This document shows, piece after piece, positions 22,282 through 23,724 of a stretch of DNA of 45,382 nt (the first letter of the stretch is position 1; every line of letters begins with the position of its first letter). Under the pieces are notes generated by a model, which worked only from the letters and a program-made list of their open reading frames with translations, ran no database searches and was not told the DNA's origin. The DNA lies in assembly GCF_032552055.1 (NCBI RefSeq), contig NZ_JAWGSV010000001.1, positions 1-45,382 on the forward strand, written 5' to 3'. The position numbers were made by a program, and so were the translations under genes. The stretch comes from Clostridium sp. GTDB taxonomy: Bacteria > Bacillota > Clostridia > Clostridiales > Clostridiaceae.

Positions 22282-23724
22282 ATGAATTTACCAAACAAAT
22301 TTCCAAAAAATTTTTTATGGGGTGGTGCAGTAGCTGCCTGTCAATGTGAGGGTGCTTATGATGTTGATGGAAGAGGATTATCTACCTCAGATATCCATGA
22401 ATATAATAAACATCTTAATAGAGCATGTATTGAAAAAGAAGGTGGCGGTAAATTAGAAGATATTAAAAGAAAGATGGCAGATACAGAAGGTTATTACCCA
22501 AAAAGATATGGTATTGATTTCTATCATACTTTCAAAAGTGACTTAGCACTAATGAAAGAACTTGGATTAAAAGCTTTCAGGACAAGTATCTCATGGTCTA
22601 GAATATTTCCAAAAGGTGATGAATTAACTCCAAACGAAAAAGGATTAAAATTCTATGATGACCTTATTGATGAAATAATTAAAAATGATATGGAACCTAT
22701 AATCACTATGTCTCATTACGATATTCCTCTTCATTTAGTTACTGAATACGGTGGATTTGGTAATAAGAAAATGATTGAATTCTTCGTAAGATACGGTGAA
22801 GTTCTTTTAAATCGCTATAAAGGTAAGGTAAAATACTGGATTGTTTGTAATCAAGTTAACTTACTTCCAACTGTTCAATTTGGTTCTCTTGGAATTTATG
22901 ATGATCAAGCAGAAAATATGGAAGAGCTAATGTACCAAGCAGTACATAATCAATTTGTTGCTGGAGCCAAAATAGTAGAACTAGCAAGAAAAATAGATCC
23001 AAATGCTCAAATGGGAACAATGGTTGCAGACGGTACTCTATACCCTGCTTCTTGTAAACCAAATGATGTTGTTCTAGCAATGAAGAAAAACCGCATGCAA
23101 TATTACTTTACTGATGTACAATTAAGAGGAGAATACCCAATATTTGCTTTAAGATACTTTAATGAAAATAACATAGATCTTAAAATTGAAGAAGGTGACT
23201 TAGATTTATTAAAAAATAACACTATGGACTACTTAGCTATATCTTATTACTCTAGTTCAATTGTAGATTCTACAAAAGATACTATGGCACCATTTAAAAA
23301 TTCACTTAATCCAAATCTTGAACCTACACCTTGGGAATGGCGTATGGATCCATTAGGATTCTATAATAGTCTTTCTCAATATTGGGATAGATATCAAAAG
23401 CCATTAATGATTGCTGAAAATGGATTTGGTGCATTAGATGTTGTTGAAGAAGATGGCAGTATCCATGACCCTTATCGTATCGATTTCTTAAAGAAGCATA
23501 TTGAGCAACTTAAAGAATGCATAATGGATGGAGTAGATATAATCGCTTACCTTTCATGGGGTCCTATTGATATAGTTAGCTCTTCTAGTGCAGAAATGAC
23601 AAAAAGATACGGATATATATATGTAGATATAGATGACCTTGGTAAAGGTACTAGAAAAAGATCTAAGAAAGACTCATTCTACTGGTACAAACAAGTAATA
23701 GACTCCAATGGTGAAATACTATAA
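22282..23724 (+). CDS. GH1 6-phospho-beta-glucosidase-like enzyme with acid/base Glu replaced by Gln
   Basis: [25 protein letters not shown], nucleophile IAENG (E379), phosphate pocket [12 protein letters not shown]; the NE motif reads NQ (Q191). Confidence 0.93.

Follow-up and report, generated by a model that had tools for sequence, protein, structure and literature searches.

The window analysed here is the whole stretch of 45,382 nucleotides from Clostridium sp. (contig NZ_JAWGSV010000001.1, positions 1 to 45,382). It contains a gene for a glycoside hydrolase of family 1 (GH1) resembling 6-phospho-beta-glucosidases, and a divergently oriented gene for a YczE-family membrane protein. The following features were located at and within these genes:

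21414–21449, no strand assigned: hairpin between the ROK gene and yczE, probable bidirectional terminator (sequence)
21512–22126, minus strand: gene for a YczE/YyaS/YitT-family (DUF6198) membrane protein of 204 amino acids, putative aglycone exporter (NF052291, E 3e-19, below the cut-off)
21521–24036, no strand assigned: accessory cassette of 2.5 kb (yczE, GH1 gene and repeat), absent from genome G041
22155–22183, minus strand: putative divergent yczE promoter TTGTAG, 17 nt, GATAAT, behind the same operator as the GH1 promoter (third-best site of the genome)
22192–22209, no strand assigned: palindromic operator TTGCAC-N6-GTG(C/A)AA, common to promoters of Gln-clade PTS operons, putative site of the C19 PRD-type activator
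22218–22247, plus strand: putative GH1 promoter TTGAGC, 18 nt, CATAAT, directly behind the operator (operator matrix)
22266–22273, plus strand: ribosome-binding site AAAGGAGG (sequence)
22282–23724, plus strand: GH1 6-phospho-beta-glucosidase-like gene of the Gln (NQ) clade, 480 amino acids (ORF, Pfam, alignment, structure comparison, tree)
22852–22854, plus strand: Q191, codon CAA in the motif WIVCNQVN, replacing the acid/base Glu
23029–23031, plus strand: D250, a carboxylate typical of the clade where strand beta-5 ends, candidate for a relocated acid/base or for a counter-ion (conservation)
23416–23418, plus strand: E379, codon GAA, catalytic nucleophile in the motif IAENG, aligned to S. 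mutans Glu375 and present in 42/42 clade sequences
23578–23610, plus strand: 6-phosphate-binding loop S433-S434-S435...K441-R442-Y443, long gluco-type without Trp (mapped to residues of PMC3605045)
23751–23777, no strand assigned: hairpin 3' of the GH1 gene, probable terminator

The unit comprises yczE and the GH1 gene, since genome G041, which is 94–95% identical on either side, has the HIT and ROK genes and neither yczE nor GH1. The ROK kinase and HIT genes were rejected as members of the unit: both are present in G041, and a ROK gene stands beside just one other Gln operon. No PTS genes and no Rfam matches were found in the window. In a metatranscriptomic run, a contig over 22267–23706 had a depth of 38.5 versus no more than 8 for the neighbouring genes; it derives from a related strain, with 56 differences, and cannot prove transcription. 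The raw RNA reads of run X22 left the GH1 gene uncovered.

Positions 23856–24032 of the window hold a dispersed palindrome, a repeat of some 175 nt that probably represents a MITE- or REP-like element; related copies lie near 19170–19300 and 44096–44152, and the genome has more than 20 matches to it. The fold of the repeat has an energy of −55.7 kcal/mol (z −6.95), it has no Rfam match, and it is missing at this site in some related contigs. Hairpins of the form AACTCA-loop-TGAGTT number 42 in the genome, including those at 21422, 23754 and 44007 of the window, and are probably terminators or ends of the 175-nt repeat. Positions 19441–20202 contain a 55-residue ORF without a Pfam match and a HIT-like gene; together with the ROK gene these lie between a spoIVFA-like gene and rodA, at a site where the inserted genes vary within the genus.

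GH1 enzymes are a textbook example of catalysis by two glutamates; natural loss of the acid/base residue is known mainly from plant myrosinases. The open reading frame at 22282–23724 is complete, with zero internal stops and a ribosome-binding site, as described in an earlier interpretation made from the DNA alone (hereafter the sequence-only reading). Pfam domain Glyco_hydro_1 (PF00232) covers residues 5–477 (E 9e-117; 391 bits versus a cut-off of 22.6). The TFNE motifs of B. licheniformis 6WGD, E. coli BglA 2XHY and S. mutans 3PN8 align without gaps to WIVCNQVN, confirming the substitution of the acid/base Glu by Q191 reported in that reading. Its statement that the nucleophile and the 6-phosphate pocket are intact also holds, as E379, S433, S435, K441 and Y443 are all in place. 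E379 occurs in 120/120 best database matches, and the glycone residues Q21, H145, N190, E379 and W426 and the phosphate residues S433, K441 and Y443 are found in all 42 Gln-clade sequences. Residues Q21, H145, N190 and W426 and the phosphate loop agree with those defined in the available text of PMC3605045, where the loop corresponds to Ser430/Ala431/Ser432/Lys438/Tyr440; in the window protein it reads Ser...Lys-Arg-Tyr, with neither a phosphomimetic Glu nor Trp. The polar pair that binds the +1 glucose in the L. plantarum and S. mutans enzymes (PMC3605045, available text) is replaced by L194 and Q273, at positions that vary among Glu-type enzymes too.

The AlphaFold model of the protein has a mean pLDDT of 85.7, with loop 194–198 below 50, and its closest structures are bacterial 6-phospho-beta-glucosidases (TM about 0.9, Z about 50). 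The nearest solved relatives are bacterial phospho-enzymes throughout; myrosinase is absent among the best 50 matches listed in the structure comparisons, which leaves room for a likeness to it. Against the NCBIfam 6-phospho-beta-glucosidase subfamily the protein scores 549 bits, below the cut-off of 639, and the gene matched by the published CfPbgS primers, discussed below, likewise falls short (572 bits).

The replacement of Glu by Gln is a property of a whole clade. Gln occupies position 191 in 120/120 best database matches (query included; 73–100% identity) and in 120/120 matches from a further subfamily that is only distantly related. A tree built from 212 sequences unites the 42 Gln-type proteins in a single clade (SH 1.0), in which the Gln state is retained across 47–100% identity. 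This clade lies within bacterial Glu-type phospho-glucosidases, which argues against descent from the plant GH1 lineage in this tree built without plant sequences. Gln is encoded by CAA in 18 and by CAG in 21 of 39 clade genes, and the distance to the nearest relatives amounts to about 0.17 in dN, with dS at 1.5 or saturated, which supports purifying selection. The conservation of NQ across a clade under such selection, which the sequence-only reading had proposed to look for, is thus found (120/120 twice, with saturated synonymous sites). Since Gln is invariant, both codons are used and synonymous sites are saturated, chance, a sequencing error and a private mutation are ruled out. Phe189 is retained in 98/101 Glu-type relatives versus 12/42 Gln-type sequences, which bears out the earlier suggestion that IVC in place of LTF marks a subfamily. 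As part of the joint explanation preferred below, and at the same even level of confidence, the canonical acid/base Glu may have been lost a single time, long ago. Two 'Q' labels outside the clade (P0163, P0203) were pattern or alignment slips, the motifs reading E.

Named clade members belong to Erysipelotrichaceae, Lachnospiraceae, Clostridium, Enterococcus, Vagococcus, Companilactobacillus, Bacillaceae, Paenibacillus and Listeria, with one Gln-type member in Coriobacterium; bacteria of gut, fermented plant material and soil are represented. The distribution of the clade is patchy. No close orthologue of the window GH1 was found in 39 relatives scored, and at least one Gln-type gene was found when the top loci in 400 further genomes of the phylum were scored, at four candidates per genome. 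One locus (L007:4002-11440) contains four Gln-type GH1 paralogues of different subclades together with two yczE genes and one PTS. Some Gln-type genes for GH1, or genes for EIIC, are split or carry frameshifts (L019:9992-11450, L023:9980-11476, L026:8713-9975, L102, L104), which suggests that the system is decaying locally. The literature searched describes no bacterial GH1 that naturally has Gln at the acid/base position, although subscription papers or unseen supplements could hold one, and the family is apparently unstudied. The GH1 sets of L. plantarum keep both Glu residues (PMC11978721, available text) and are therefore uninformative on the Gln clade.

In the alignments, the loss of Glu is always accompanied by a new carboxylate, a candidate for a catalytic role. 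D250 is present in 120/120 close homologues. An acid stands at this position in 33/42 Gln-clade tree members versus 1/101 Glu-type relatives, and in 110/120 members of the distant Gln subfamily, which has Gly-Asp-Asp at 249–251 (110/120 and 107/120). Nine clade members lack Asp250; eight of them have an acid at Gln+7 or Gln+8, and the ninth has one slightly further on. Counted together, an acid at 198, 199, 250, 251 or 273 occurs in 42/42 Gln-type versus 13/101 Glu-type sequences, a post hoc count on related sequences with positions chosen after viewing the alignment. In its simple form, the idea of Asp250 as a universal replacement catalyst is ruled out by the 9/42 members without it. Glu-type enzymes show size compensation between positions 250 and 271 (22/35 versus 10/59), which suggests a salt bridge between Asp250 and Arg271, a probable pairing in which Asp250 may be structural. 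A mutual-information search for contacts of position 250 gave noise, at an effective number of 73.

The genes around Gln-type GH1 in other genomes indicate a linked transporter. Among 32 loci, the window included, a Lac/Cel-family EIIC is present at 28, EIIA at 27, EIIB at 24 and a PRD-type activator at 22. The associated EIICs, 30 in number, group in a separate clade (SH 1.0), near which GH1 is of the Gln-type only in 17 cases, of both Gln- and Glu-type in 12, and of the Glu-type only in one (L031). These loci were picked via GH1, and the EIIC–GH1 link is therefore biased. An unbiased search of 400 other genomes yielded three matches to the EIIC clade, one beside a Gln GH1 and two beside GH3, and in plasmid-collection records 4/4 EIIC matches lie beside top GH1 matches, of which the three that were read are all Gln-type. 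In the EIIC clade, Ser replaces the GIH-motif His of the cellobiose/chitobiose EIIC 3QNQ, a residue which we take to bind the sugar, and the clade scores far under the cellobiose and lactose cut-offs. The PTS of the Gln loci has separate Lac/Cel-family IIB, IIC and IIA, with the exception of L072, where a Glc-family IIBC is found. In L163:4977-8557 and L164:5075-8600, GH3 and an AraC-GH39 fusion regulator adjoin an EIIC of the same EIIC clade that is an orphan, lacking IIA and IIB; L164 also contains GH127 and GH120 genes.

A YczE-family gene is found at 10/34 Gln loci versus 0/49 other GH1 loci, in related genomes and with a profile built from these genes. EamA exporters are located within or behind the operon at L011 and L022. 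Among 84 flanking ORFs, no other function and no other glycosidase recurred. A search of longer proteins revealed no YczE–GH1 fusion, which is weak evidence. One 90% protein cluster mixes 481-residue GH1 and 218-residue YczE members of Clostridium innocuum that share no mutual similarity, which hints that a fused ORF bridges them or that the clustering is an artefact.

A motif search in the operon promoters recovered TTGCAC-N6-GTGCAA followed by a -35 element. An operator matrix built from 16 sites of other organisms was scanned over the 3.38-Mb genome, and the top sites were C19:12259 (31.4 bits), window 22191 toward GH1 (29.1 bits), window 22210 toward yczE (25.2 bits) and the C19 IIB promoter (19.5 bits). 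The fifth-ranked site reached 16.9 bits, and the best sites of five column-shuffled matrices 15.8–18.2 bits. The palindrome without the -35 part is non-specific, and a promoter consensus scan alone was not above chance (30 found versus 31 expected). The genome's best site belongs to an internal operator-promoter (C19:12240-12259, L080) between EIIA and the two GH1 genes of the C19 PTS operon. The 23 GH1 matches in this genome were classified as 2 Gln-type, 19 Glu-type and 2 fragments. The second Gln GH1, 74% identical to that of the window, is the last gene of the C19 operon activator-IIB-IIC-IIA-GH1(Glu)-GH1(Gln), a Lac/Cel-type PTS operon without yczE. We regard the cassette as a probable satellite of the C19 regulon that would supply the YczE missing from the C19 operon. 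Promoters of the Listeria-type subclade (L083, L021, L025, L029, L020) have a different palindrome, TTTCCTA-N4-TAGGAAA, at the operator position.

The residues, the clade, its selection, the gene context and the operator match are direct observations, and the GH1 protein is a real variant of the 6-phospho-beta-glucosidases, selected, transporter-linked and predicted to be non-canonical in catalysis. Its activity and substrate class, the roles of Asp250 and YczE and the binding of the activator would be as follows. With confidence evenly balanced, we favour a PTS-fed 6-phospho-beta-glucosidase for a glycoside whose aglycone would depart with no proton donated to the glycosidic atom, assisted by the relocated carboxylate. 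The C19 PRD-type activator would turn on the PTS, its two GH1 genes, the window paralogue and YczE. The Lac/Cel-family PTS would import and 6-phosphorylate a beta-glucoside other than a simple disaccharide. Glu379 would then attack C1 in a retaining mechanism, while Gln191 would hold water. The aglycone could be self-leaving, as a 1-O-acyl ester, an acidic enol or phenol, or a thiolate; alternatively it could be activated at a remote atom or be cationic, as an N-linked heterocycle. The carboxylate on the aglycone side (Asp250, or elsewhere the Glu near Gln+7) could serve as a base, a remote acid or charge compensation. Glucose-6-phosphate would enter glycolysis, and YczE probably exports the aglycone.

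In a tentative, rather unlikely joint version, the system would be a pathway for N-linked or cationic beta-glucosides, e.g., plant N-glucosides of heteroaromatic bases. It would combine the dedicated Lac/Cel-family PTS, a GH1 with its carboxylate further out, and YczE exporting the base, with remote activation of the leaving group by analogy to nucleoside hydrolases. If true, this would be a new natural catalytic arrangement for GH1 and would give the YczE family a function.

It is unlikely that the carboxylate simply took over as acid/base, Asp250 or the Glu near Gln+7 doing both jobs of the lost Glu via water on an ordinary O-glucoside-6-phosphate of unusual linkage or shape. The either/or conservation of the new carboxylate speaks for this, as do the Gly-Asp-Asp of the distant subfamily (110/120 and 107/120), the 17 operons in which the Gln enzyme is the sole GH1, and T. 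neapolitana BglA, where the residue at acid/base+7 lines the +1 site (PMC3056771, available text). However, in the T. neapolitana homology model of the same source the residue that corresponds to Asp250 in motif register is not oriented toward the cleft, and Asp250 probably pairs with Arg271. The proposal also leaves unexplained why Gln, rather than any small residue, is invariant.

The sequence-only reading had suggested, among other options, a 6-phospho-thioglucosidase. A bacterial myrosinase of this kind, hydrolyzing glucosinolate-6-phosphates and convergent with the plant Glu-to-Gln change, we consider improbable. The clade members live in gut, fermented plants and soil, and the paralogue expansions (four in L007) would suit a chemically diverse substrate class. 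A sulfate permease and a YeeE-type sulfur transporter occur near two loci (L020, L080), but as single cases outside the operons. Positions 198 and 251, which we take to match the sulfate- and ascorbate-binding arginines of mustard myrosinase, carry Lys or Arg in 0/42 Gln-clade sequences, the aglycone-side positions being acidic rather than basic. Plant thioglucosidases have the same substitution at the same position (PMC1781453), and PTS-dependent glucosinolate cleavage is known in Firmicutes, where CfPbgS of Companilactobacillus farciminis cleaves phosphorylated sinigrin (PMC8660893), both according to the available text. However, genome G084 contains an exact match to both published CfPbgS primers, in a gene whose motif is WLTFNEIN; the available text of the paper does not give the motif of CfPbgS itself. 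This gene shares 42% identity with the window GH1 and falls outside the Gln clade. It is located after a 627-residue Glc-family IIBCA and before a 215-residue P-loop protein, a gene order that agrees with the description of the CfPbgS cluster in the available text of PMC8660893, and 11/11 GH1 matches of this genome read NE. Two TauE/SafE sulfite-exporter genes (L123:110-838 and 7533-8324) flank the primer-matched cluster; this pair, unmentioned in the available text of PMC8660893, fits sulfate release from glucosinolates. By tblastn, none of the Gln loci matched the TauE exporters or the nukS-like P-loop gene. In plant myrosinases ascorbate serves as the base, and the aphid myrosinase keeps both Glu residues (PMC6767122, available text), so Gln is unnecessary for glucosinolates. 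The label 'bacterial myrosinase' is therefore possible but unsupported, because the CfPbgS-matched gene keeps Glu and has another clade position, another PTS family and sulfite-exporter neighbours. Of the earlier interpretation, the conserved, selected subfamily acting on a phospho-glycoside without the usual acid catalyst stands, while the glucosinolate link is not sustained.

Similarly improbable is a transglucosylase or retaining phosphorylase in which Gln admits an anionic acceptor (phosphate, carboxylate or thiolate) and transfer to it would resolve the glucosyl-enzyme, yielding, e.g., beta-glucose-1,6-bisphosphate. GH3 phosphorylases with a neutral acid/base position exist, which counts for this reading, and HAD or histidine phosphatases adjoin the operons L002, L006, L007, L012, L018, L019 and L028, although such phosphatases are common beside PTS operons and absent from most loci. 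GH1 enzymes changed from Glu to Gln work well as transferases when the leaving group is good and the acceptor nucleophilic (PMC1781453, available text), but the acids gained on the aglycone side would repel an anion, and no acceptor-pathway gene recurs. A pseudo-enzyme, acting as a sugar-phosphate-binding or regulatory partner of a Glu-type GH1, would suit the 12/30 operons that also encode such an enzyme and the 19 Glu-type matches in the window's genome, but is highly improbable given the 17/30 operons without one, the invariant nucleophile and the new carboxylates that co-vary with the loss of Glu.

The PTS link, the shared operator and the relocated carboxylate go beyond the sequence-only reading; what is new here is the cassette with the C19 operator, the carboxylate in 42/42 clade members and the Glu in the CfPbgS-matched gene. 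A Glu lost once and kept lost, a carboxylate gained, and a transporter, activator and membrane protein of its own imply a substrate class or chemistry not yet described. Since members are present in gut Erysipelotrichaceae, Lachnospiraceae and clostridia and in enterococci, Companilactobacillus, bacilli and Listeria, a dietary or plant glucoside is the probable substrate, the aglycone being released by gut bacteria. As the operator lends itself to a reporter assay that screens directly for the inducer, the question can be tested. Enzymes of the Gln clade would be natural thioglycoligase-like catalysts.

Among characterized systems, the GH1 6-phospho-beta-glucosidases (EC 3.2.1.86; 6WGD, BglA 2XHY, Bgl 3PN8/4GPN, Pbg1 3QOM, E. 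faecalis 8YSV) are 42–51% identical to the window GH1 and share its fold, nucleophile, glycone site, long phosphate loop and PTS context. The Gln clade differs from them in having Gln for the acid/base Glu, in the loss of the Phe before NQ, in the carboxylate at 250 or near 198 and in its own EIIC clade and YczE partner, and the window GH1 also in Leu194/Gln273 for the +1 Asn/Arg. A cluster of Listeria monocytogenes (NZ_LR134399.1) encodes a GH1 of the Gln clade, 57% identical and with NQ and Asp250, and an EIIC of the same EIIC clade; its promoter palindrome is unlike the window operator. From the gene order, we take this PTS-GH1-activator cluster to be lmo0914-lmo0918, and its clade GH1 to be lmo0917. 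The lmo0917 transcript is higher in soil extract (PMC3179493), lmo0917 carries an automatic pathway label (PMC5750592) and lmo0915 is induced in mouse spleen (PMC2679221); the available text of these papers gives no substrate for either gene.

Two GH1 proteins of rice, Os4BGlu14 and Os9BGlu33, naturally have Gln at the acid/base position without being myrosinases (PMC1781453, available text); these are plant, secreted, non-phospho enzymes encoded by isolated genes, whereas the Gln clade is transporter-linked. The CfPttS/CfPbgS sinigrin pathway shares PTS import followed by GH1 cleavage of the 6-phosphate, but relies on a Glc-family IIBCA and is accompanied by TauE and a P-loop protein, while the Gln loci have a Lac/Cel-family PTS and YczE. 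Plant myrosinases (Sinapis alba MA1, 1MYR/1E4M) share the GH1 family, the Glu nucleophile and the Gln at the acid/base position. Unlike them, the window GH1 is of independent origin, has a phospho-sugar pocket, is cytoplasmic and PTS-fed, and no glucosinolate context was found. Overall, it is myrosinase-like in the missing acid catalyst, yet outside the myrosinase family, and the evidence points to a class of imported glucosides not yet known rather than to mustard-oil compounds.
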